Source: Mobula hypostoma (Eukaryota). Taken from it: DNA of 64,000 nt. This document shows positions 4,268 to 64,000 of the stretch, piece by piece (the stretch's first letter is position 1; each line of letters begins with the position of its first letter). The position numbers and the translations under genes were made by a program. The stretch spans positions 66,342,001 through 66,406,000 of the forward strand of contig NC_086108.1 in the NCBI RefSeq assembly GCF_963921235.1, in the 5' to 3' direction. The notes beneath the pieces were generated by a model. It had not been told where the DNA came from, did not search any database, and was given only the letters and a program-made list of their open reading frames with translations.

Positions 4268-5009
4268 ACCGTATGCCTTCTTAACCACAGAGTCAAACTA
4301 CGCAGCAGCTTTGTGTGTCCTATGGACTCAGACGTCAAGATCCCTCTGATCCTCCACACTGCCAAGAGTCTTATGATTAATACTATATTCTGCCATCATA
4401 TTTGACCTACCAAAATGAACCACCTCACACATATCGGGTTGAATTCCATCTGCCACTTCTCAACCCAGTGTTGCATCCTATCAATATCCCGCTGTAACCT
4501 CTGACAGCCCTCCACACTACCCCTAACCTTTGTGTCATCAGCAAATTTACTAACCCATCCCTCCACTTCCTAATCCAGGTCATTTATAAAAATCATGAAG
4601 AGTAGGGGTCCCAGAACAGATCCCTGAGGCACACCACTGGTCACCGACCTCCATGCAGAATATGACCAATCTACAACCACACTTTGCCTTCTGTGGGCAA
4701 GACAGTTCTGGATTCACAAAGCAATATTCCCTTGGATCACATGCTTCCATACTTCCTCAATAACCCTTGTATTGGGTACGTTATCAAATGCCTGGCTGAA
4801 ATCCATATACACTACATCTATGGCTCTACCTTCATCAATATGTTTAGGCACATCCTTAAGAAGTTCAATCAGGCTTGTAAGGCATGACCTGCCTTTGACA
4901 AAGCCATGCTGACTATTCCTAATCATATTATGCCTCTTCAAATGTTCATAAATCCTGCCTGTCAGGATCTTTTCCATCAGCTTACCAACCACGGAACTCT
5001 GTAACACTC

Positions 5010-5614
5010 TGTAACACTTGCTTTGCCTAGTGGCATGATCACGGTGTGATAACCCCCTGCCTGGCCAAACCTTAGCACTCTCGTTTGGGTGGATGTTGTG
5101 TGTGGTGTCCCCTGTGTAAAATCAGTACCCCGAAATAACCAGCGGTACACAATGTGCAGTTAAATGATTAAGATTTTATATTTGACTACGGGGTTAGTAG
5201 AGAAACAAAATATCAAATAAAAGGGTGCCAATAATCTCATTAGGCAGTCCAGTGCACAAATCGTTGGAGCTCACAGATTTTTCTCTTCATTGATCCTCCT
5301 CCGATCATCACCGATTCCTGGGCTCCCGTCCCAAGCCCAGGGCCGAGAGGGTCTCACCACCCACTGTCTCCTCAAGCCATGTCTTTTCTCTTCATCCTCC
5401 TCGCGCCTTCTCCCCGAAGCCCGCGCAAACTAACAGCTTTCACACAGACAGAAAGGATAACATCTCTTCCATTGGTTAACACTGAATTCCAAAGCCCCAT
5501 TATCAGTTATAAAGGAAACATCCTGCTACAGAAACCCACTACCTCAGCAGTTAACATTACAGAGAATTTATTTTATAAGCCTTAGCAACTAACATGAAAG
5601 AAGAAACCCCTACA
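5010..5614 (-). repeat. 3' LTR of the myosin-carrying Gypsy element
   Basis: TG...CA ends (TGTAAC at 5010, CCTACA ending 5614); preceded on the minus strand by the purine-rich tract TTTGGTGGGGGGAGAG; duplicated at 8831-9310. Confidence 0.9.
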
Positions 5615-6081
5615 CTCTCCCCCCACCAAATTTAGTCATGTCCTCATGACATCTAAATAACTCGCCAACACTTCCTGCAGACACAAAAACCCAATCCAGG
5701 TACAAAGCAGTGACATTGCTCCACAGACAGTAGACCTTACTCCCAGTTCCCCAGGCGCTACATAGGCCAACCTATCGGGGAGTTTCCTAATCCTCTGAGA
5801 CCTCCATACCCCCTCACCTAACCCTTCAGGGTTGGACACTACTGGGGATTCCTCGGGTCTGCTTGCCGAATCCTCTCTCAATCATGCCACCCCGTCTCTC
5901 CTTCAGGGTCCTGAAGTAACCCAGGCTGCCTACAGCTAGCACCCCCCCCCCTGCCCACCTCACCTGACTCAGTGGGAGAAGGGCCAGAAGTCTCTTCATC
6001 AAACAGGGGGAAGTTAGTGAAAGGCAGCACGTACCACACCTCCATCTCATCATCTTTCGAATCCATATTCTTCCCCTTTTC

Positions 6082-6645
6082 CTCGATTTGTAGCAGCTGT
6101 TTGGTTCCCTCCACGCTGGTGCACTTGGCCTGGGCTGCTTCTGCAGCCTCCTCAGCCTTCTGTTATTGAGACAACAGCTTCTTCTTGGTCTCCTCCAACT
6201 CTCGCCACAGTCGCAGCAGTTCTGACTCACGCTTCTTGGCCATCTCAATCTGGTATGCAGTTACTCCACCAGCTTTTTCCACCTAGGCCTGATATTCCTT
6301 AATCTTCCTGTGAAAAACAGCAGTTAAATACTGTTCATCCTCCAATCTAGTGTTCACTGAACTTATCTCCAGCTTTTCCTTCTTAATGACTTCTTCCAGG
6401 TCAACTTTCAGTTTTTCCATTTCATTTAAGCTGTCGATGGTCATCCTCAGGTTCCCTTCAAGCTTCAGCTTCCCTCTTCTGAGATCTGTCTGCAATTGCT
6501 TCACCTCCTCTGAATTGTATTCAGACTTCCCTCTCTGGGCTCTCAGTTTTCTGTTGGCCTTAGTTAGACAGCTGTCTTTGTCTTCACCAACTTGCAAGCC
6601 TTCCAACTTGTTCTGGATCACTTTCTCCAGTCTCTGCTCGGAATT
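6082..6645 (-). pseudogene. Captured intronless sarcomeric myosin heavy-chain rod fragment (MYH16-like), in frame with pol
   Basis: Translation: [18 protein letters not shown]...[45 protein letters not shown]...[74 protein letters not shown]. This matches the myosin II rod motifs LQAEEDKVN.LTK, KLEGDL, EDEQ, RLEEAGGAT..QIE..KKRE.E and [39 protein letters not shown] resembles MYH16 as I recall it; the paralog call is less certain than the myosin call. Confidence 0.88.
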
Positions 6646-8807
6646 CTGTCTCTCTGTCTTCACTTCAAACTTGATCCCGTAGAGACAGTCACTCAGCTTC
6701 TCCTCCACCATTGTCCATTCCAACGCCAAGAAATTCAACTGGTGTGTTGGGTAATTTCTCCAATAATAACCACAGAATTCCACAAATGAAATCAGAACAC
6801 TCACCAATTATGACCTTCACCAGACCTGGTATGTGTCCAGAGAAAGCTTTAACTCTTTAGTTCTCAGCCGCTCCTGCAACAGCCTCACTTCATATTCTTC
6901 CGAGGCAGATCCAAATACTAGGAGATCATCCAAATACACCAAAACTCCAAACAACTCCACATCCCCTATCATCTTCCTCATGCCCCGCGGGAAAATTGCA
7001 AGGGCTCTGGATATGCCCTGGGGCATCTTTTCGGACTAGAAGAATCCCAGGGGACCTATAATGGCCGTCTTCTCCTTGCCGGCCTCACTTAGCAGGATTT
7101 GGCAACATCCACTCCTCAGATCCAGCATATTAAACCACTTTGCACCACTCAAACAGACCACTGCATCTTCAACCCTCGGGACCGCATATTGGTCGGGGAC
7201 AGTGCACCTATTCACAGTCCTAGAATCCATACACACACTGCCTACGTCTTCCACATCTGCAGGGGCCAGTCACCGTGACCCTTCTCTCACCAAGGCATCT
7301 TCAGCGGTCAACTCCCCCGTTTCTGGTATTTCGGAGCGTCCACTAAGAGGGCTTCACCCTCAGATACTCGCCCGGGCTGTACCACCATTTGCTCTCGTTT
7401 AACTTCAGTACCTGTCCCAATGCTGCCATACACATCTTCACCAGCAGCTCGAGATGCTGGGTGTACACATAATTCCCCCAAACAGCTCTCACCTGCCTTC
7501 CTCTAGCAGGCCCCCATGCGCCTCCTCACAAGCGGGGTGTGGGTCCCCTCCTGAGTCGAAACGCTGCCCGTCTCAACAGTGTCTGGACAAATCAGCACTA
7601 ACTACTCACGAATCTCAGACACCCACACCTTGGCCTCTGAGAGCTCCAGCTTCACTAACCAGTAATCGTTGTCTGGATAAACCCCAGCACTGATACTCCA
7701 AATCTCCAGTCCCCTGAATGGTGTCAAGAGTATATGCTTCAAATAACGAACTGTACAGCAACTTGACCTGCGCCCCAGTGTTGAGGATGGCCTTAGCATA
7801 GTTTCCATCTATCCGTAATGACACATGGGAGTGTGGTCCCACTAAGTCTTCAGGAATAGGGTCTTCTCCTTTCTGGAGATTCTGGTACATTCTGGGAACG
7901 TGTTCCCCCAGAGACCCCAAGCCGTTCCCCCACTGGGCTCCACTAAGTTTCCCGACACCTCTCTGATCAGCTGAACAACTGGGGGAGGGGCTGATCCCCT
8001 GAAATGATCCCCCTGGCACAGCAAGTAGTTTAGCTGCCCTCCTAGCCAGAGAAGATACACTAAAAGCTTTCCCCCAATCTCCTGACACAGGTATGGAAAG
8101 CCCCCCAGGTACTGTATGTTACTTCCAGTCGAACCAAATGCATTTTCGCACGCTTTCAGATAACTGGCAACTGACTACAGGATAATTGAACCTTACAGTT
8201 CTAACATCGTTAGCAGCCCGCCTACTCAAACTTTCAACCAATCCCTGTCGCTTTCCCTCAACCGGGCCGTGCCACTCATTTAACAACTGAGAGATCTGTT
8301 CCACCCACGTCTCACACACCTCCACTCCTTCAGGGGTGGGCATTATTCCAAAGGAAAAGCAGAGCCTGCGATAGCGGGAACATCTATTCACCAGAGAAAC
8401 AAAGGCAGACACAACCCTAGAATTCTCACTCTCCACCGGGGGACAAGAACTGATTAGACATCCCAACTCCATCCACTCTTCCCCCTCCCTCCTGACAGCC
8501 CATGGCCCCGCCTCACCTGGGGTACCAATAGACACTGGCAATCCCACCACCGTGACGTCAGTGCTAGCTCGTCCTAAAGCAAGGTTTGAGCCCACCATTT
8601 TATCAAACTTTTGCGTTACGATTTCAACTTTGCCATCAGCTTCAACCATACTCATAAATCGAATTAACAATTCATCCAAGGTATGAATATTCGCCCCACT
8701 CAACCCGCACACATTCCCACAGAGGTGCACATTACTAACCACAATCCTACAGAGACAAATCAGCACTGATTTAAACAGGGCGATCACACATCACCCCACT
8801 GAATCAA

Positions 8808-8827
8808 ATCCACGGACGAAGCCCCCA
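8808..8827 (-). promoter_or_regulatory. Primer-binding site, tRNA-Pro-like
   Basis: The minus strand reads TGGGGGCTTCGTCCGTGGAT, 3 nt inside the 5' LTR. The canonical PBS-Pro is TGGGGGCTCGTCCGGGAT, so this copy has two 1-nt insertions. Confidence 0.8.
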
Positions 8828-8830
8828 AAA

Positions 8831-9310
8831 GTAACACTCGCTTTGCCTAGTGGCATGATTGCAGGGTGATAACCCCCTGCCTGGCCAAACCTTAGCACTC
8901 TCTTTTGGGTGGATACTGTGTGTGGTGTCCCCTGTGTAAAATCAATACACCGAAATAACCAGCAGTACACAATGTGTGGTTAAATGATTAAGATTTTATA
9001 TTTGACTATGGAGTGAGTAGAGAAACAAAACATAAAATAAAAGGGCGCCAGTAATCTCATTAGGCAGTCCAGTGCACAAATTGTAGGAGCTCACGGATTT
9101 TTCTCTTCACTGATCCTCCTTTGATCATTGCCAACCTCTGGGCTCCCGTCCCGAGCCCAGGTCCCAGAGGGTCTCGCCACCCACCGTCTCCTCAAGCCAT
9201 GTCTTCTCTCTTCATCCTCCTCGCGCCTTCTCCCCGAATCCTGTGCAAACTAACAGTTTTCACACAGACAGAAAGAATAACATCTCTTCATTGGTTAACA
9301 CTGAGTTCCA
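8831..9310 (-). repeat. 5' LTR (5'-truncated) of the myosin-carrying Gypsy element
   Basis: Aligns with 5011-5490. The part matching 5491-5614 is missing and the sequence runs directly into CR1. Confidence 0.88.
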
Positions 9311-22620: not shown

Positions 22621-23149
22621 GACTTCACAGACCAGACCATGACAGAAAGAAAAGAGAAAGCAGGAAATAACCAGCAGACCAGACAGCATCTCTGGAGAGA
22701 CAAAAGCTCAAATGAACCCTGACTTCTCATAAGTTTAGGGAGTAGCCAACCAGCAATTGTACTCATGTGCTCCTAAAGGCTTCCATTAAAAACGTGGACC
22801 TCTTCCTCAATAGGGAAGTCTTCACTTTCAGTGACTATTTTCAGTGACTATTGTGTGGGATCTTCTGGTTGGTGCTAATTTTCCATGAGAAGTGTATTAA
22901 TTTGTATAAGGCCAGCATTCCTTCTTTAATGCCCAAACAAGAAAGTGAAGACTTCCCTATTGAGGAAGAGGTCCACGTTTTTAATGGAAGCCTTTAGGAG
23001 CACATGAGTACAATTGCTGGTTGGCTACTCCCTAAACTTATGAGAAGTCAGGGTTCATTTGAGCTTTTGTCTCTCCAGAGATGCTGTCTGGTCTGCTGGT
23101 TATTTCCTGCTTTCTCTTTTCTTTCTGTCATGGTCTGGTCTGTGAAGTC
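22621..23149. repeat. Perfect inverted duplication: 209-bp arms, 111-bp spacer
   Basis: 22621-22829 is the reverse complement of 22941-23149. The ORF track gives the same peptide on both strands (22584-22766 minus, 23004-23216 plus). Confidence 0.95.
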
Positions 23150-24680
23150 CGCATTCCGGTTCACGGTCCAGTCTGTGGACTCAGGACTCTGGGTCTTCCA
23201 GCTGTCCCTTGTTTGAGTTAATCATAAGCACTTGATTCCCATCTTGGGGCTTGGAATATAAGTAGCCTTGGGGTTGAGTGTGAGCTGCTGGTTTGTTTTG
23301 CCAAGGTCCCCTTGGAGCAACCTGACAGTGGAAGGCTAGAGCAGCCAATTGCCATCTTTAGGTCGCGTTGGGGAACCATCCCCTCATGGAGCCTTGCTGT
23401 CAGTAGTCAGAGCTATCTTTGTGGTATGGATTCGGCTGTTTCCTGGGCCAGCTGAGAGGCTGCCTGCTACTCTGAGCTAGGTAGGGATCTGGCTCTTTCT
23501 GTAGCCAGCTGAGGTTGCTGGCTGAACTGAGACTTGGAGCTACCCTGGAGCAGAGATGGATCTGTCTGTTGTTCTTTGGTGTTGTCTCTTGTCCTGGCCT
23601 CCGTGGGGTAAGCCAGGCCGTTTTGCCGTTACCCTGCGGGAGGTCTTGTATTGTCTTGTCTTGTCCTTGCCTCTGTTGGGTAAGTCCGGCCGTTCTGCCA
23701 TTACCAGATGGAGAGACCTGTCCCACCTTGGTTTGGAGATGAAGTTGAGTCCCGGCTTGTCTTAGCATATGTCCTGGCTCTGTCTATGTTCTGTCCTGTC
23801 TCATGTTAGTGTCATGTTAAAGATGAGTTCCGGCTTGTTGATGGATAAGTCCCGGCTATATGTTGATGTTCGGTTCCCAGTCTGTCTCTGAGCTCCAAGA
23901 ACCCTAGCCTCGAGGATCCCGCAGCCAAGCTCCAAGAACCCTCACCTGGAGGATCCCGCAGCCAAGGTCCAAGAACCCTAGCCTTGAGTATCCCGCAGCC
24001 AAGCTCCAAGAACCCTAGCCTCGAGTATCCCGCAGCCAAGCTCCAAGAACCCAAGCCTCGAGGATCCCGCAGCCAAGCTCCAAGAACCCAAGCCTCGAGG
24101 ATCCCGCAGCCAAGCTCCAAGAACCCAAGCCTCGAGGATCCCGCAGCCAAGCTCCAAGAACCCAAGCCTCGAGGATCCCGCAGCCAAGCTCCAAGAACCC
24201 AAGCCTCGAGGATCCCGCAGCCAAGCTCCAAGAACCCAAGCCTCGAGGATCCCGCAGCCAAGCTCCAAGAACCCAAGCCTCGAGGATCCCGCAGCCAAGC
24301 TCCAAGAACCCAAGCCTCGAGGATCCCGCAGCCAAGCTCCAAGAACTCAAGCCTCGAGGATCCCAAGCCAAGCTCAGGCCTCTAGACCCCAGCCACGTCC
24401 TGTCCTGAAGCCATGTCATGTTCTTGCCTGGTTCTGGGGTCCGAGCCCGAGGCAAAACCCAGGTTCTGGGTCCTTGTCCAGTCTCGGGCTTGGAGTCCAA
24501 GCCTTGTCTCCTAGTCCATGATTTCTAGTCCTGGTCCCGCTTTTCCTAGCCCAAGTCCGCGTTCTTGTCCCTGCTTCTGGTCTGAATCCTGTCATATCCC
24601 TACTCTAGCCAAGTCCTGTTCCTTGTACTTCAGTGTCTGTGTCTTACATTTGTGTCTGTTCACAGCACCCCATTGTGGCA
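23126..24680 (+). mobile_element. Solo LTR with internal minisatellite
   Basis: TGTCATGG...TGTGGCA termini and a 5-bp TSD CTTTC (23121-23125, 24681-24685). The ends are shared with 35706-36814 and 36841-37875. Confidence 0.85.
23892..24375. repeat. 37-bp minisatellite, about 13 units
   Basis: Unit GCTCCAAGAACCCAAGCCTCGAGGATCCCGCAGCCAA, head-to-tail with no spacers. Confidence 0.95.
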
Positions 24681-26405: not shown

Positions 26406-28686
26406 CTTATACTCAATACTTTGATTAATAAAGGCCAACGTACCAAAAGCTCTCTTTACGACCCTATCCACCTGTGACGCCACTTTTAGGGAATTTCGTA
26501 TCTGTATTCCCAGATCCCTCTGTTCTACTGCACTCCTCAGTGCCTTACCATTAACCCTGTATGTTCCACCTTGGTTTGTCCTTCCAACGTGCAATACCTC
26601 ACACTTGTCTGTATTAAACTCCATCTGCCATTTTTCAGCCCATTTTTCCATCTGGTCCAAGTCCTTCTGCAGGCTCTGAAAACCTTCCTCACTGTCTACT
26701 ACACCTCCAATCTTTGTATCAACAGCAAATTTGCTGATCCAATTTACCACATTATCATCCAGATCATTGATATAGATGACAAATAACAATGGACCCAGCA
26801 CTGATCCCTGTGGCACACCACTAGTCACAGGCCTCCACTTGGAGAAGCAATTCTCTACTACCACTCTTTGGCTTCTTCCATCGAGCCAATGTCTGATCCA
26901 ATTTACCACCTCTCCATGTATGCCTAGCGACTGAATTTTCCTAACTAACCTCCCATGCGGGAGCTTGTCAAAGGCCTTACTGAAGTCCATGTAGACAATA
27001 TCCACTGCCTTCCCTTCATCCATTTTCCTGGTAACCTCCTCGTAAAACTCCAATAGATTGGTCAAACATGACCTACCACGCACAAAGCCATGTTGACTCT
27101 CCCTAATAAGTCCCTGTCTATCCAAATGCTTGTAGATTCTGTCTCTTAGTACTCCCTCCAATAACTTACCTACTACCGACATTAAACTTACCAGCCTATA
27201 ATTTCCCGGATTACTTTTCGATCCTTTTTTAAACAACGGAACAACATGAGCCACTCTCCAATCCTCCGGCACCTCACCTGTAGACAGCGACATTTTAAAT
27301 ATATCTGCCAGGGCCCCTGCAATTTCAACACTAGTCTCCTTCAAGGTCCAAGGGAACACCCTGTCAGGTCCCGCGGATTTATCCACTTTAATTTTCCTCA
27401 AGACAGCAAGCACCTCCTCCTTTTCAATCTCTACAGTTTCCACGATCTTACTACTTGTTTCCCTTAATTCCATAGACTTCATGCCAGTTTCCTTAGTAAA
27501 TACAGATGCAAAAAACCTGTTTAAGATCTCCCCTATTTCCTTTGGTTCTGCACTTAGCCGACCACTCTGATCTTCAAGAGGACCAATTTTATCCCTTACA
27601 ATCCTTTTGCTCTTAATATACCTGTAAAAGGTCTTTGGATTATCCTTCAATTTGACTGCCAAGGCAACCTCATGTCTTTTTTTATCCCTCCTGATTTCTT
27701 TCTTAAGTATTTTCTTGCACATCTTATACTCCTCAAGCACTTTATTTACTCCCTGTTTGCTATACATGTCATACAACTCCCTTTTCTTCTTTATCAGAGT
27801 TGCAATATCCCTTGAGGACCAAGGTTCCTTATTCCTATTCAATTTGCCTTTAATCCTGACAGGAACATACAAACTCTGCACTCTCAAAATTTCTCCTTTG
27901 AAGGCTTCCCACCTACCGATCACATCTTTGCCAGAGAACAACCTGTCCCAATCCACACTTTTTAGATCCTTTCTCAGTTCTTCAAATTTGGCCTTCTTCC
28001 AGTTCAGAACCTCAACCCTAGGACCAGATCTATCCTTGTCCATGATCAAGTCGAAACTAATGGTGTTATTCACTGGAACCAAAGTGCTCCCCTACACAGA
28101 CTTCCGTCACTTGTCCTAACTCGTTTCCTAACAGGAGATCCAATACTGTATCCCCTCTAGTTGGTCCCTCTATATATTGATTTAGAAAACTTTCCTGAAC
28201 ACATTTTACAAACTCTAAACTATCTAGACCCCTAACAGTATGGGAGTCCCAATCAATATATGGAAAATTAAAATCCCCTACCACCACAACTTTATGTTTC
28301 CTGCAGTTGCCTGCTATCTCTCTGCAGATTTGCTCTTCCAATTCTCATTGACTATTGGGTGGTCTGTAATACAATCCCACTAATGTGGCCATACCTTTCC
28401 TGTTTCTCAGCTCCACCCATAAGGACTCAGTAGACAAGCCCTCTATTCTGCATTGAAATATATACACCTCAGATTACACTGTTCCAGGAGTCCTGTAATT
28501 ATAGGTGGAAACATGGAAGCATGAAAAAGCATGGCACATGATTCTAAATTAAACTAAGACCATCTGCCTACATATGGTCCGTATCCCTCAGTTTGCTACC
28601 TATTTATGTCTAAATGCCTCTTAGAAGCAATTGAGATATCTGTTCCTACTGCCTTCCTGGGCAGTTCCAGGCATCAATACCCTGGG

Positions 28687-35705: not shown

Positions 35706-36814
35706 TGTCATGGTCCGGTCCGTGAAGTCCATATTCCGGTTCACAGTCCGGTCCATCGACCCTTGCTCCAGGTTTTCCTGTCTACTCTGTTTCTGTTCTT
35801 GTTAAGCTCTAATTGAGCCAGCTGATGCTCATTGGGGCTGGCTGCATAAATACCTTCAGAGACCAGGGCGTGGCTGCTGGATTGTTCTTGTCCTTACTGC
35901 TTGTATCCCTTCCTCTGCCTTCTGTTTCCTTGCCTGAAGCCCTGCCTTGTCTTGCCGGTAACTGTCGCCTCGTCTTGCCTGCAGTCTTGTCCTGGAGCCA
36001 CCCTGTACCTAGCTCCCTTCCTGTCCCTTGCCTCCGTCGGGTAAGCCAGGCCATCTTGCCGTTACCTGCGGCTGGTTCTGTCCCTTCCTGTCCCTTGCCT
36101 CCGTTGGGTAAGCCAGGCTGTCTTGCCCTTACCTGCAGTTGGTTCTGTCCCTTCCTGTCCCATGCCTCCGTCGGGTGGTGATCCGTGCCCTGCCCAGGTG
36201 AACCGCGTCCTGCCCAGGAGGAACTTGCCTAGCCTCAAGCCTGAAAACTCCAGCCTCCTGCCTAGCCTCAAGCCTGAAGACTCCATCCTCCTACCTAGCC
36301 TCAAACCTGAAGACTCCAGCCTCCTGCCTAGCCTCAAGCCTGAAGATTCCAGCCTCTAGTCTCCTGTCAAGCCTCGTCTCTAGCCTCTAGACTCAAGCCT
36401 CCTGCCTCCTGCCAAGCTTTGCCTCAAGTCTCTAGCCTCTAGCCTCTATCCTCCTGCCTCCTGCCAAGCCTCGCCTCTAGCCTCAAGCCTGAAGACACCA
36501 GCCTCCTGCCTCCTGCCAAGCCTCGCCTCTAGCCTCAAGCCTGAAGACTCCAGCCTCGTCCTGCCTGCCTGCCAAGCCTTGTCCTTGTCTAGTTCTGGGG
36601 TCCGAGCCAGAAGCAAGACCCAGGTACTGGGTCATTGTCCAGTCTCTGGCTCGGATTCCAAGCCCGGGCTCCTAGTTCTCTTGTTCTGTCCTGTTCCGGG
36701 TTCCCAGTTTTCGTGTCCATGTCCTTGCCCTCAGCCTGTATCCTAGTCCTGTCCCTAGTACTTCAGTGTCTGTGTCTTGCACTTGGGTCCATTCCCAGCC
36801 ACCTCCTCATGACA
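35706..36814 (+). mobile_element. Solo LTR with internal tandem repeats
   Basis: TGTCATGG...CATGACA termini; TSD TTAGG/TTAAG (1 mismatch); 33-bp repeats from about 36228. Confidence 0.8.
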
Positions 36815-41579: not shown

Positions 41580-43280
41580 TTTTTTTTTGCATCTGTATTT
41601 ACTAAGGAAGCTGGCATGAAATCTATGGAATTGAGGGAATCAAGTAGTGAGACCATGGAAACTGTACAGATTGAAAAGGAGGAGGTGCTTGCTGTCTTGA
41701 GGAAAATTAAAGTGGATAAATCCCCGGGACCTGACAGAGTGTTCCCTCGGACCTTGAAGGAGACTAGTGTTGAAACTGCGGGGGCCCTGGCAGAAATATT
41801 TAAAATGTCGCTGTCTACGGGTGAAGTGCCGGAGGATTGGAGAGTGGCTCATGTTGTTCCGTTGTTTAAAAAAGGATCGAAAAGTAATCCGGGAAATTAT
41901 AGGCCAGTGAGTTTAACGTCAGTAGTAGGTAAGTTATTGGAGGGAGTACTAAGGGACAGAATCTACAAGCATTTGGATAGACAGGGGCTTATTAGGGAGA
42001 GTCAACATGGCTTTGTGCGTGGTAGGTCATGTTTGACCAATCTGTTGGAGTTTTTCGAGGAGGTTACCAGGAAAGTGGATGAAGGGAAGGCAGTGGATAT
42101 TGTCTACATGGACTTCAGTAAGGCCTTTGACAAGGTCCCGCATGGGAGGTTAGTTAGGAAAATTCAGTCGCTAGGTATACATGGAGAGGTGGTAAATTGG
42201 ATTAGACATTGGCTCGAAGGAAGAAGCCAGAGAGTGGTGGTAGAGAATTGCTTCTCTGAGTGAAGGCCTGTGACTAGTGGTGTGCCACAGGGATCAGTGC
42301 TGGGTCCATTGTTATTTGTCATCTATATCAATGATCTGGATGATAATGTGATAAATTGGATCAGCAAGTTTGCTGATGATACAAAGATTGGAGGTGTAGT
42401 AGACAGTGAGGAAGGTTTTCAGAGCCTGCAGAGGGACTTGGACCAGCTGGAAAAATGGGCTGAAAAATGGCATATGGAGTTTAATACTGACAAGTGTGAG
42501 GTATTGCACGTTGGAAGGACAAACCAACGTAGAACATACAGGGTTAATGAGGAGTGCAGTGGAACAGAGGGATCTGGGAATACAGATACAAAATTCCCTA
42601 AAAGTGTCATCACAGGTAGATAGGGTCATAAAGAGAGCTTTTGGTACGTTGGCCTTTATTAATCTAAGTATTGAGTATAAGAGCTGGAATGTTATGATGA
42701 GGTTGTATAAGGCATTGGTGAGGCCGAATCTGGAGTATTGTGTTCAGTTTTGGTCACCAAATTACAGGAAGGATATAAATAAGGTTGAAAGAGTGCAGAG
42801 AAGGTTTACAAGGATGTTGCCGGGACTTGAGAAACTCAGTTACAGAGAAAGGTTGAATAGGTTAGGACTTTATTCCCTGGAGCGTAGAAGAATGAGAGGA
42901 GATTTGATAGAGGTATATAAAATTATGATGGGTATAGATAGAGTGAGTGCAAGCAGGCTTTTTCCACTGAGGCAAGGGGAGAAAAAAACCAGAGGACATG
43001 GGTTAAGGGTGAGGGGGGAAAAGTTTAAAGGGAACATTAGTGGGGGCTTCTTCACACAGAGAGTGGTGGGAGTATGGAATGAGCTGCCAGACGAGATGGT
43101 AAATGCGGGTTCTTTTTTAATGTTTAAGAATAAATTGGACAGATACATAGATGGGAGGTGTATGGAGGGGTATGGTCCGTGTGCAGGTCAGTGGGACTAG
43201 GCAGAAAATGGTTCGGCACAGCCAAGAAGGGTCAAAGGGCCTGTTTCTGTGCTGTAGTTTCTATGGTTCTATGGTTCTAT
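41580..43280 (+). mobile_element. Nested young CR1 (same subfamily as 25697-28450)
   Basis: ORFs 41616-42263, 42270-42623 and 42406-43200; tail ttctatggttctatggttctat. Confidence 0.95.
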
Positions 43281-46264: not shown

Positions 46265-49200
46265 CAATATTCTTCTGACCTACTGAAGATGTTAGGCCAT
46301 CTGAAAGCTGAAAGGTTAAAACTGTCACTGGACAAGTGCCAGTTCTGCAAGATGTCTGTCAACTACATTTGACACATAGTCTCACAGATGGAGTAACTAC
46401 AGATCTGTTAAAGATAGAGGCACCCACATACTCAAGAATGTGAGTGCGCTGCGCTCGTTCCTTGGATTCTGTGGGTACTATCAGAGGTTTGTGAAGGACT
46501 ACTCTAAAATGAGTCACCCTTTGAATCAGCTTCTGTGTGGGTACCCTCTTTTGGGGAAGAACGGGAGGAGGGCGAAAGGAGAAGATGGTAAAGTTTATCT
46601 TAGCCCTTTGGAGTCTTTTGGAGCAAGATGGGATACAAAATGTGAAGAGGCCTTTCAGTTGCTGAAGGAGCTGCTGATGAAAGTGCCTATGTTGGCCTTT
46701 GCAAACCCCCAATTGCCATATGTGTTGCATACAGATGCCAGCCAAGTGGGCTTAGGGGGGCATTCTATATCAGGATCAGGGCACAGGGTTACAACCTGTC
46801 ACTTTTGTCAGTCGGAGTCCGTCACACCCCGAGCGAAACTACCTCATGCACAAATTGGAGCTCCTGGTACTAAGATGGGCCATGGTGGATGTAAGTGATT
46901 ATCTATATTGCTCCAAGTTTGAGGTGAGGATGGACACCAACCTATGAACATATCCTGATCTCCATGAGATTGGATGCCACAGGCCAATGTCGGCTGGTGG
47001 AGTTGTCTGCCTATGATTTCAACATGTAGTACCCGCCAGAGAGCTGGAACATTGATGCAGATGCTTTGTCCTGACATGCGCATGAAGGGCTGGAAATGGA
47101 CGGAGAATGGGAGAGCGTTCCTGCACCTGGAGTTAAAGCAATGTGCCAGTTTTCCATCATGGGGAAATCAGAAGCACGGCCAGAGCTGGATAGAACTGTG
47201 GATCGTTAGGGAGTTTCTGTGCCATTCCACAAGCTCACTGCAACCTGACTGCCCTGAATACAAAGCAGTTGCCTATGTTGTGTCCTGGGAAAGTGGCCGC
47301 TGCTCAGTGAGATGACCCTTGTATGGGTACCGTTCGGTCAGCTGTTGCGACAGGGGATATGGCCCAAGCTGGAACGATGAAACACCCTGCCATATCTCTA
47401 CTGCTGAGAGAATGGGACAAACTGGAGTTGAGGAACCAGGTTCTAGACTGGGTCACGTCTCTTCCAGACAGGCCTTGACGTTCCCAGTTGGTTCTGCCTG
47501 ATAAGTATCAGAGGATTGTGTTGAAGTCATTTCATGATGATTCAGGTCATTTGAGTTTGACAAGATCTATGGATTGGTCAGAGATCAGTTCTGCTGACCC
47601 CAAATGAACCCTGAAATAAAAGAGTACTGTAAGTCATGCATTCAATGTATTTGGAGGAAGATGCTGCCTATGAGGGCCGCTCCTTTATCTCATTTGCAGA
47701 GTGCAGGGCCACTTGATCTGGTATGTATGGATTTCCTCTCCATACAGCCTGATTCCAGCTACACAGCGAATTACTGATCGCTACACCAGATATGCTTAAG
47801 CCTTCCCTACAAAGGAACAGAGGGAATCCACTGTGGCCAAAGTGTTTTGGAAGAAGTATTTTGTTTGTTATGGCCTTTTTAGATGGATACAGAATGATCA
47901 GGGAAGGGATTTTGAGAGGAGGCTCATACATGAGGTACTGAGCATGCTTGGAGTCAAGAAGTCGAGGACTATACCTTATCACCTTCAGGATGATCCCCAG
48001 CCCAAGAGGTTCAACCGGGCATTACTAGACATGTTTGGAACCCTGGAGTCAGTATATTGGGCATCTGGTCCACTGTTACAACTGTACACAGAATGAAACT
48101 ACTGGATACTCACCATATTATTTGAAGTTTGGGTGCAAAGCAAGATTGCCTGTTGACCTCTGGACTGCTGGGGAAGATTTGCCACAGAAGACCTATCCAT
48201 GTCTGACATGAGGAGTGAATTGCAAAAGGCTTATGAACTAGCAAAGGTCTCTGCTACCAAGCAGAATCAAGGAAATAGGAGGAGATATGAACAAAAGATT
48301 AGGTTCTTCCAACTGATGCTGAGACAGAGTTCACATAAGGAATTGGGGGCTACCAGGGAAGCATAAGTTGGCTGACCACTGGGTGGCTACGCCCTATGTA
48401 GTGGAGAGTCAGATGCCAAATACGTCAGTTTTCCGGGTGAAGCCAAAAGATGAGAATGGCCTGTCAAAATTCTCCATCGGAACCACCTTTTACCTCTGGG
48501 ATAAGAGGCACACGTTGACCCAGAGCCTGACATAAACCCTGCCGCTAGTAGGAGGACTCTGCAGCGAGATTGGAGAACAGAGAGACAAGCAGTGGAGAGA
48601 CGTGAAGGGGACTTAACCACTGAATATTGTATAGACTCAAAGGATGAGGAAATGGTGGTGTGATACATGTTACCTATGCAAATTCCCCAATTATTGACAA
48701 AGAGACATTTCAAAGTCATGTGGACATGACTATTTCTGGTGGTGGGAGTGTGTAACACCCTGGTAAAGGTTTTACTGCTGACGTTGTAGAGTATTTTATG
48801 TAAAGGTCTTTCTGTTGAAGCAGTACATTCTGCTGGCGTGTTTGGGTTACCATTAATGATAAGAGATGCTTAGAAATGTGTGTCATCCAGTCAGGACAGT
48901 GGAACTGGGAGAAGGTTCTAAAGAACACTGGGGGAGCAGTTTTTTGTGATGAACACTGAGGTGGGTCGAGGTCTTTCTCGGCGGGAGATGGAGAGAGAAG
49001 GCGCTCAAGAGAACTGGCTGTAGGATTCAATCTGGCGAGAGCGTGTAATCAAATGGAGCCCAAGAGGGGAACTTTTACCAGAAGTGGTGAATAGATGTTG
49101 GTACAGTGTATACATCAAAAACAATGGCTTCTGGAAGATTTGAGCTCCACCGTGCACATGTGGCTGTTTAATTATAATGGGACCTTTTTGTTTTTTTCTT

Positions 49201-49510
49201 TTCTTCCTTTAATAGCTGTTTGCTTAAGTTAGCATTGTTAAATATACTTCTTTATAATTGTATGCAGTGTATGATCTGTCATTTCTTGCCTAAAGGTGAC
49301 TGCCAGGGGCAGTAAATCACACAGCATTTACACAAACCGGGGTTTGGGTGGACAAGACATCCTAACCTCAGGAATCTGGCGAGACCAAAGTCGTACACAC
49401 CCTGGATGTATGAAGCTTGAAGGTGGGTTTCTCACCACGGACTCCAGTGGCTATTAGCAAGGAGCTAACGAGCCATACTTCCAGAGACGCCCAGTAAAAT
49501 GAGGCTTCAA
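46265..49510 (+). mobile_element. Degenerate Ty3/Gypsy 3' half (RT end, RNase H, integrase, PPT, 3' LTR), related to 5010-9310
   Basis: LRSFLGFCGYYQRFVKDYS...LHTDAS (46440-46898). Integrase ...IQNDQGRDFE...KSRTIPYH...RFNRALLDM (47833-48096). PPT followed by TGTAAC at 48751; the LTR right end is approximate. Confidence 0.88.
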
Positions 49511-61610: not shown

Positions 61611-61856
61611 TTAGTACAAAAGGTTTAGGTGGGGCAGAATTTTTCTAGTTGTACCCAGAAAGGGATCCTGACACAGTATGTAACCAGTCCACCTGGAGGA
61701 GTGGCCACACTGAATATAATACTAAGCAATGAACCTGAGCAGCTGACAGGCCTCTTGGTGGGTGTGCATTTCAGAAACCATGACCATAACTCCCTGTCCT
61801 TCAGCATAGCCATGGACAAGGACAAGAGCTGATAATACGGGTAAGTAGTTACAGTA

Positions 61857-62915
61857 GCACACATCAAAGTTGCTGGTGAACGAAGCAGGCCAGGCAGCAT
61901 CTCTAGGAAGAGGTACAGTCGACGTTTCAGGCCAAGACTTTTCGTCAGGACTAACTGAAGAAGGAGGTAGTAAGAGATTTGAAAGTGGGAGGGGGAGGGG
62001 GAGATCCAAAATGATAGAAGAAGACAGGAGGGGGAGGGATGGAGCCAAGAGCTGGACAGTTGATTGGCAAAAGGGATATGAGAGGATCATGGGACAGGAG
62101 GCCCAGGGAGAAGGAAAAGGGGGAGGGGGGAAAAAAACCCAGAGGATGGGCAAGGGGTATAGTCAGAGGGACAGAGGGAGAAAAAGGAGAGAGGGAGAAA
62201 GAATGTGTGTATAAAAATAAATAATGGATGGGGTACGAGGGGGAGGTGGGGCATTAGCGGAAGTTAGAGAAGTCAATGTTCATGCCATCAGGTTGGAGGC
62301 TACACATGTAGCCATACATGTAGCCAGTGGCCACACATTTTAATTCCACATCCCATTCCCATTCTGACATGTCTATCCACGGCCTCCTCTACTGTAAAGA
62401 TGAAGCCACACTCAGGTTGGAGGAACAACACCTTATATTCCATCTGGGTAGCCTCCAAGCTGATGGCATGAATATTGACTTCTCTAACTTCCGCTAATGC
62501 CCCACCTCTCCCTCGTACCCCATCCATTATTTATTTATATACACACATTCTTTCTCTCTTTCTCCCTCTGTCCCTCTGACTATACCCCTTGCACATCCTC
62601 TGGGTCCCCCCCCCCCCTTTCCTTCTCCCTGGGCCTCCTGTCCCATGATCCTCTCATATCCCTTTTGCCAAACACCTGTCCAGCTCCTGGCTCCATCCTT
62701 CCCCCTCCTGTCTTCTCCTATCATTTTGTATCTCCCCCTCTCCCTCCCACTTACAAATCTCTTACTAGCTCTTCCTTCCGTTAGTCCTGACGAAGGGTCT
62801 CGGCCCGAAATGTCGACTGTATCTCTTCCTAGAGATGCTGCCTGGCCTGCTGCGTTCACCAGCAACTTTGATGTATGTTGCTTGAATTTCCAGCATCTGC
62901 AGAATTCCTCGTGTT
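61857..62915 (+). mobile_element. Penelope-like insertion with inverted 5' pLTR
   Basis: GIY-YIG C-terminus VATHFNS...RLEEQHLIFHLGSLQADGMNIDFSNFR at about 62327-62497. Inverted arms at about 61857-62303 and 62450-62878. TSD TAAGTAGTTACAGTA at 61842-61856 and 62916-62930. Confidence 0.9.
62783..62818 (+). ncRNA. Minimal hammerhead ribozyme motif (stem III variant)
   Basis: AGUC-CUGACGA-A-GGGU-CUCG-GCCC-GAAA-UG-UC-GACU. Confidence 0.7.
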
Positions 62916-62954
62916 TAAGTAGTTACAGTAATTAGGGGAGGGTTAATTACAAAA

Positions 62955-64000
62955 ATAACAACTTATTTATAGATCTCTTTTTATACAAATGATGTAACTT
63001 GAAGTGTTTTACAATGGGATAAAGTGCAAACATGAAAATAAAAGACAAAACGATGCTATTTAAATACAATGCTAAATCAATTGATTTCTAGCTGGCATTT
63101 AAAAGTGTCAACTGAGTCTGCATCCTTATAATTTTAGGTATTGAGTTCCATAATTCAAAAAGGCTGCCCTGCCTGTTATCTTTTGAGGAAGATAGTTTAA
63201 ATTTTAAGAAACTGGCTGAAGAAGACCTGAAAGCTCGAGCAGGATTATAAAAAGAGAACTATTCTGTGATGTAACACACATAAAAGTTGCTGGTGAACGC
63301 AGCAGGCCAGGCAGCATCTCTAGGAAGAGGTGCAGTCGACGTTTCAGGCTGACACCCTTCGTCAGGACTAACTGAAGGAAGAGTGAGTAAGGGATTTGAA
63401 AGTTGGAGGGGGAGGGGGAGAGTACCCCATCTGTTACTTATTTTTATACACACATTCTTTCTCTCACTCTCCTTTTTCTCCCTCTGTCCCTCTGAATATA
63501 CCCCTTGCCCATCCTCTGGGTCGCCCCCCCCCCCACTTGTCTTTCTTCCCGGACCTCCTGTCCCATGATCCTCTCGTATCCCTTTTGCCTATCACCTGTC
63601 CAGCTCTTGGCTCCATCCCTCCCCCTCCTGTCTTCTCCTATCATTTTGGATCTCCCCCTCCCCCTCCAACTTTCAAATCCCTTACTCACTCTTCCTTCAG
63701 TTAGTCCTGACGAAGGGTCTGTACCTGAAACGTCGACTGCACCTCTTCCTATAGATGCTGCTTGGCCTGCTGCGTTCACCAGCAACTTTTATGTGTGTTG
63801 CTTGAATTTCCAGCATCTGCAGAATTCCTGTTGTTTGCTATTCTGTGATGTACCATATTTCAGTCCCAGAATAATGAGAGCTTTCAAATCAATTCTAAAA
63901 GATGCAGGAAGCCAGTGCAGAGTAGTTAGGATTGGAGTGATATGCTCCCTCATCCTGGTTTTAGATAAATGTCTAGCTACGAATTCTGAATGAGTTGAAT
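62955..64000 (-). mobile_element. L2-clade LINE 3' part, split by a Penelope insertion
   Basis: The minus strand at about 63870-63950 reads REHITPILTTLHWLPASFRIDLKALII, a typical L2 ORF2 C-terminal motif. Confidence 0.8.
63274..63837 (+). mobile_element. Penelope-like insertion with inverted 5' pLTR
   Basis: Inverted arms at about 63274-63421 and 63651-63798. TSD CTATTCTGTGATGTA at 63259-63273 and 63838-63852. Hammerhead motifs at 63334-63369 (-) and 63703-63738 (+). Confidence 0.9.

Follow-up and report, generated by a model that had tools for sequence, protein, structure and literature searches.

A myosin rod inside a Gypsy-type retrotransposon of Mobula hypostoma and an integrase-bearing sister copy that brackets the exchange

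The window analyzed here, a 64,000-nt stretch of Mobula hypostoma contig NC_086108.1 (positions 66,342,001 to 66,406,000, forward strand), includes two Gypsy-type elements, named A and B. Element A has a pol whose end was exchanged for a myosin rod, and it is one copy of a multi-copy family of stingrays and manta rays. Element B, dead and incomplete, belongs to a sister family with integrase. As an outgroup it is valid and reveals what element A has lost, but it does no more than bracket the exchange. We consider it reasonably probable that the family originated as a helper-dependent Gypsy hybrid that was later reshaped by deletion and recombination.

Organization of elements A and B

Element A has two LTRs, a primer-binding-site-like stretch, which we take to resemble a tRNA-Pro site, and a polypurine tract, as in Ty3/Gypsy LTR retrotransposons (Table 1). 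The identity between the 5' LTR and nucleotides 5011-5491 is 90.6% (K2P distance 0.099, 480 columns). The final ~10 nt of the 3' LTR are tandemly repeated at its border (window positions 5000-5019). Most of RNase H and all of the integrase are missing from the element, and its reverse transcriptase region does not include the blocks corresponding to residues 373-407, 547-~572, and 599-711 of P0011. Altogether four pol blocks, of ~29-125 codons each, are gone from element A with no involvement of the myosin.

Table 1. Components of elements A and B, in window coordinates
Feature	Position	Strand	Remarks
Element A, whole	5010-9310	-	Gypsy-type pol with myosin rod
A, 5' LTR	8831..9310	-	first ~120 nt missing; adjoins LINE-like DNA
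A, primer-binding-site-like stretch	8808..8829	-	directly after the 5' LTR end
A, gag remnant, PNMA-type capsid	8101..8652	-	Pfam PNMA E 3e-6, above cut-off
A, protease region	7332..7866	-	tblastn with P0011; frame breaks near 7740 and 7310
A, reverse transcriptase	6760..7302	-	Pfam RVT_1 E 1.5e-10; in-frame internal deletions
A, RNase H stub (upstream flank)	6658..6759	-	P0011 ~712-746
A, myosin rod insert	6082..6657	-	sense, in frame
A, ~6 codons assignable neither to myosin nor to B	6064..6081	-	resolution limit of the downstream join
A, acidic C-terminal pol tail (downstream flank)	5893..6063	-	70% DNA identity to B over 81 nt
A, palindromic hairpin (5635-5650) and polypurine tract	5615..5650	-	
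A, 3' LTR	5010..5614	-	
B, reverse transcriptase C-terminus and RNase H	46265..46953	+	frameshifted, 5' truncated; Pfam RT_RNaseH_2, RT_RNaseH
B, RNase H end, linker, and broken integrase	46930..48633	+	1704 nt, absent from A
B, acidic tail start	48634..48711	+	followed by ~330 nt less than in A before the hairpin
B, hairpin (48715-48730) and polypurine tract	48715..48750	+	
B, single 3' LTR	48751..49397, end approximate	+	64% to the LTR of A over 498 columns

The sequence that occupies the gap in element A is a myosin rod (best match MYH7, E 3e-18); Pfam did not recognize it. The insert comprises four pieces, equivalent to MYH7 residues ~963-974, ~999-1114, ~1150-1180, and ~1385-1424, so that gaps of 24, ~36, and ~205 codons lie between them; the placement of the first 10 codons comes from an alignment by eye to the family copies with longer myosin described below. 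About 115 codons of the insert align to MYH7 without gaps, and this stretch presumably spans several myosin exon borders. Identity to the myosin-like protein P0160 is 74% over 82 amino acids, and two RefSeq models of the family bear MYH16-derived names. A search for full-length ray myosins with residues 40-290 of P0020 as query recovered none among 1216 candidates, a negative of little weight.

A single frame runs from the reverse transcriptase through the myosin into the tail, with 6 stops in 470 codons. Given the 10% LTR divergence, these stops could mostly postdate the insertion. All eight joins of element A between 7302 and 6022 are in frame, against a per-join baseline of 0.39-0.50; taking one half for each join, the probability of eight in-frame joins is ~0.004 (0.5^8), a value affected by ascertainment bias, and two frame breaks are found further upstream. 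Among contig joints that lie inside the ORF, those of at least 108 nt were in frame in five of five cases and smaller ones in none of five; this is a small sample, in which the 10 joints come from the 12 listed of 20 variants with known letters, the other 2 lying outside the ORF. Selection for frame in the family is thus offered as a lead. One reading, which we put forward tentatively and as rather doubtful, is that the family behaves like a defective-interfering RNA, with dead proteins and drifting sequence, in which only variants in frame from gag to the stop are amplified; translation to the end would then protect or package the RNA. A bolder form of it would have the same host mRNA captured a second time.

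In element B the order reverse transcriptase, RNase H, integrase is that of Ty3/Gypsy. The Pfam domain Integrase_H2C2 was found above its cut-off at ~47556-47660, while rve (47770-47980) reached 24.6 bits versus a cut-off of 32.6 and represents a broken piece. Frameshifts and stops are numerous, and gag, protease, most of the reverse transcriptase, and the 5' LTR are missing. There is no pol match upstream of 46265, and a second LTR copy for B is not present in the 64-kb window. The earlier note, a reading of the letters of the window, had described B as an element spanning 46265-49510. The end at 49510 proved to be unsupported, with LTR homology extending to ~49343 and a probable end at ~49397, and B cannot be taken as a whole element, since it starts within the reverse transcriptase and has one LTR only.

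Other repeats found in the window are a perfect inverted repeat of 209 nt whose arms lie 111 nt apart (22621-22829 and 22941-23149), a tandem array with a 37-nt period (23817-24445), a composite tandem repeat with a spacing of 33-52 nt (36219-36557), a 967-nt inverted pair that is 95% alike (26549-27515 and 41583-42549) among many LINE-like copies, CR1-like by eye, and a cluster of ~280-300 nt repeats, ~90% alike and in both orientations (61853-63825).

Flanks, hairpin, and LTR border shared by the two elements

Element B carries both flanks of the myosin of element A, as the earlier note had proposed. The upstream motifs, LYCSKFEVR at 46903-46929 (+ strand) in B and LYGIKFEVK at 6658-6684 (- strand) in A, and the downstream motifs, DSKDEEMVV*YMLP at 48634-48675 (+ strand) in B and DSKDDEMEVWYVLP at 6022-6063 (- strand) in A, are located where that note had placed them. 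At the DNA level the upstream flanks are identical at 80 of 125 nt (64%) and the downstream flanks at 57 of 81 nt (70%); neither match was equaled in 500 shuffles, nor was the corresponding peptide match in 1000. The downstream match exceeds the extent initially noticed and crosses a 1-nt indel in B. Since the downstream peptide on its own gave an E value of 1.6 (tblastn, whole window), this flank draws its weight from the DNA match, which is longer, and from collinearity, there being five collinear matches between A and B plus the homology of the LTRs. The myosin of A has no match in B, its score having been reached in 91 of 200 shuffles. The contrast in size of what lies between the flanks was likewise correctly described: in B the flanks enclose 1704 nt, made up of the end of RNase H and the integrase, versus 594 nt in A. 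The distance from the tail motif to the hairpin is 40 nt in B versus 372 nt in A.

In intact pol relatives, an acidic stretch follows the integrase at the position of the tail. None of 54 integrase-positive proteins matched the tail of A at E 0.01, so that it is B that ties this tail to the end of pol; among the sequences compared, B is the only integrase-bearing one with the specific tail motif of A. A search for longer proteins with this tail found none among 20 candidates, again a weak negative. Over 71 shared columns of reverse transcriptase and RNase H, A has 38 residues (54%) in common with B and 45 with P0011; of 82 other proteins, 4 equal or exceed B in closeness to A. The LTRs differ, as the earlier note had said, yet they share homology over 498 columns (320 identical; none of 300 shuffles did as well), and to consider A and B as sister families is fair.

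Both elements carry the hairpin GTCATG-N4-CATGAC, of which there are exactly two in the window. Three runs, from three organisms, each contain about 3000 contigs that match nucleotides 5560-7320, contig depth not being equivalent to copy number. The bin that includes the hairpin has the greatest depth in each of the three DNA-type runs, and contigs that diverge from A on either side of it are numerous; the hairpin marks a wider clade, far beyond A and B. Folded with its surroundings it gave z values of -0.3 and -0.5, and 71 of 200 and 60 of 200 shuffles folded just as well. As it is clade-wide in the contigs and folds no better than shuffles, the hairpin was rejected as a marker of close kinship. 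As for a putative role, one may guess at plus-strand priming or RNA pairing.

In each DNA run, 89-120 contigs match the hairpin and polypurine tract and then continue into a B-like LTR start (5611, 5612-5879). One contig is 87% identical to the 3' region of A over 268 nt and does not have the LTR start of A. An A-like 3' region next to another LTR start means that the LTR type may not separate families cleanly.

The family of element A and its joins

The chimera of A recurs in 12 of 41 protein matches, which are models from Hypanus sabinus, Mobula birostris, or M. hypostoma; with eight further proteins, 20 family proteins besides A were classified. Diverged contigs bridge both joins of A in several runs; a further run, X14, guessed to be RNA, contributed 285 contigs and was not counted as expression. 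Searches for family loci led to no confirmed case among 248 pattern matches in metagenome contigs and to none among 108 in prokaryote genomes. P0048 was considered as close kin and rejected, its high profile score stemming from repeated reverse transcriptase domains.

Some of the gene models deserve mention in their own right. The TMEM192 isoform X1 model is the gag-to-tail frame of the element. P0049 has an unrelated N-terminus, which we take to be SDHAF3-like, fused to part of the myosin and tail. Seven models depart from the element at one common point of the tail, just behind the tail motif; this common exit suggests shared cryptic splice sites and possible exonization.

The joins of the family were read from gene models, which are possibly spliced. 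The downstream join follows one pattern in 12 of the 21 family proteins and in 2 more by eye, the remaining 7 ending or leaving the frame before it; this join is old and fixed. Upstream the picture is different. In 6 of the 17 family proteins mapped the myosin begins upstream of its start in A, up to ~50 codons earlier: these long-type starts correspond to MYH7 914 (four proteins), 928, and 951, versus ~963 in A, and P0026 aligns to MYH7 without gaps from 915. On the other hand, the RNase H kept in P0008 and P0020 corresponds to ~702-731 of P0011, versus ~712-746 in A. With more RNase H in A and more myosin in P0008 and P0020, neither form can derive from the other by deletion alone. No family protein (0 of 21) has the union of the two, RNase H up to the join of A together with a long myosin start, nor is a remnant of the RNase H end or the integrase found in any of the 21.

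At position 720 of P0011 no variation is seen among B and the outside proteins (87 of 87), and one and the same substitution is found there in all five family proteins that cover it, which include both join types. Both types descend from one already decayed ancestor. Together with the fact that they are not nested, this shared derived change indicates that the upstream join of A is probably a later deletion end.

The join type of A is present in 10 other family proteins and in contigs from two organisms. Element A is the least drifted copy, with 37 of 44 residues like P0160 versus 28-32 in the 8 others that have the whole block; it retains a 7-codon myosin block missing from 8 other proteins of both join types, as well as ancestral residues at two RNase H positions. 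Read by eye, 35-39 contigs per DNA run continue past the deletion of A at 7287 in the manner of intact P0011, so that by this reading a parent-type sequence closer to A than B exists. A variant contig at 6078-6286 connects the long myosin piece directly with the beginning of the tail, frame preserved, with a net difference of 192 nt; its tail-side position is that of A and its myosin end is another.

Origin of the hybrid and comparison with known systems

The earlier note had gone beyond the shared flanks, taking B as a map of the breakpoints and the myosin as a replacement produced by a double template switch. The first of these views does not stand, as B is too distant (64-70% DNA identity) and truncated, and the upstream join varies in the family; at that identity, microhomology at the joins of A is unreadable. 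What is borne out is the present state of A: the pol flanks are there, the RNase H end and integrase are missing, and myosin is in their place. That the loss of the integrase and the gain of the myosin were a single double switch is not proven by B; a replacement is likely by precedent, its original extent not being fixed by B.

Template-switch replacement is, by precedent, the best mechanism. A host sarcomeric (MYH16-like) myosin mRNA would have been co-packaged by the ancestral element, and, as in the precedent, the reverse transcriptase would have switched from the element to this mRNA where the pol tail begins, proceeded along the myosin rod, and rejoined the element upstream, this first upstream switch being placed at the RNase H stub or somewhere behind it, inside the interval that spans 1.7 kb in B. 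The hybrid, which retained both LTRs, the primer site, and the polypurine tract, could then have been multiplied by autonomous relatives acting as helpers, and would have continued to shrink by internal deletion and by recombination between subfamilies, a process with which the many variants seen are consistent. The ancestor would have had RNase H at least up to the join of A, its myosin would have begun at least ~50 codons before the start seen in A, and both present join types would be later deletion ends of this form with longer RNase H and longer myosin. By parsimony, the low drift and the ancestral residues of A would make its join the old one, so that this account needs the recombination between subfamilies, or else a second capture of the host mRNA.

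The same features make A look basal and, with the wide occurrence of its join type and a brief stretch at the join where, by eye, RNase H residues resemble myosin residues, could be read to mean that the joins of A are the original switch points, that the integrase was replaced in one double switch, and that the longer myosin was added later, the long copies resulting when the reverse transcriptase switched once more, guided by homology, onto the host mRNA. We regard this as unlikely, for it demands that one mRNA was captured twice, a rare event each time, and the myosin block present only in long copies is no closer to P0160 (10-14 of 31 residues) than the shared block (29-30 of 44), a weak test in which copies without the block still score 6-13 of 31. 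Even if this reading were right, B, at 64-70% DNA identity, could not show it. That the flank matches are instead generic Gypsy conservation or chance, or that A is an assembly chimera, is hardly credible: the E value of the downstream peptide alone and the wide sharing of the RNase H motif and the hairpin would agree with it, but both flanks were matched in none of 500 shuffles, the collinear matches are accompanied by LTR homology, and the joins recur in contigs of several runs and in models from three named species.

Capture and loss of the integrase could also have been separate events, the myosin entering near the tail at the cost of few or no residues, or into an element already devoid of integrase, followed by stepwise deletion. 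The four pol blocks lost from A with no myosin involved mean that integrase loss may not coincide with the capture, the myosin itself has lost blocks of 24, ~36, and ~205 codons, and the common derived RNase H change indicates that the lineage had decayed before its radiation. Nevertheless, such a sequence of events is distinctly improbable: no family protein keeps an integrase remnant, no myosin-free copy running from stub to tail is found among the 15 of 98 joints listed, the loss of ~568 codons far exceeds every deletion seen, and the precedent, to the extent of the excerpts of PMC5131818, favors replacement. Capture by replacement, with later deletion and recombination, is the account that we hold to be probable.

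Under this account, an LTR retrotransposon that had captured a vertebrate gene founded a large family in stingrays and manta rays. Annotation is polluted, since this element has been annotated as MYH16, as "myosin heavy chain-like", and even as TMEM192. A sister copy reveals the missing part, while in an old family that is still undergoing deletion the present joins need not be the points of capture. The coexistence of nested and non-nested variants makes the order of events, and a selection for frame independent of the protein, testable. The class of event is known; the vertebrate myosin-carrying family itself was not found described in the literature searched, and the words "myosin" and "MYH" do not occur in the main text of a manta genome preprint (10.64898/2026.10.27.761883), the supplements of which could bear on it.

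In element order, LTRs, primer site, and polypurine tract, element A is like Ty3/Gypsy elements with a PNMA-type gag (P0011, P0051, and P0052, intact or near-intact), as judged by similarity. Defective RNAs of coronaviruses and plant viruses spread best with an unbroken reading frame. The deletion variants described here likewise preserve a single frame, even with a dead protein; unlike those RNAs, the family of A is a genomic retrotransposon, in which frame selection is only suggested.

A close parallel is that of the LTR-mediated retrocopies, or "pseudo-LTR retrotransposons", of animals. According to Tan et al. 2016 (PMC5131818), the captured sequence replaced a portion of the ORF in 15 of 15 Drosophila cases, microsimilarity was found at 25 of 29 junctions, and further retroposition is reported. 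As in those cases, a partial host coding sequence replaces an internal part of the ORF between the LTRs of A, in sense and, as is often so there, in frame, and was, as judged from the family proteins and contigs, retroposed again. The cases of Tan et al. are young, with readable microsimilarity and few insertion sites, whereas the hybrid of A is old, multi-copy, and present in stingrays and mobulids, and the numerous deletion variants into which its family has diverged obscure where the upstream join first lay. The maize element Bs1, according to the portion of PMC13317346 consulted, is also an LTR retrotransposon with transduced host gene fragments and a chimeric ORF; Bs1 combines pieces of three genes in a plant, while element A carries one myosin transcript, cut by internal deletion, in a vertebrate.
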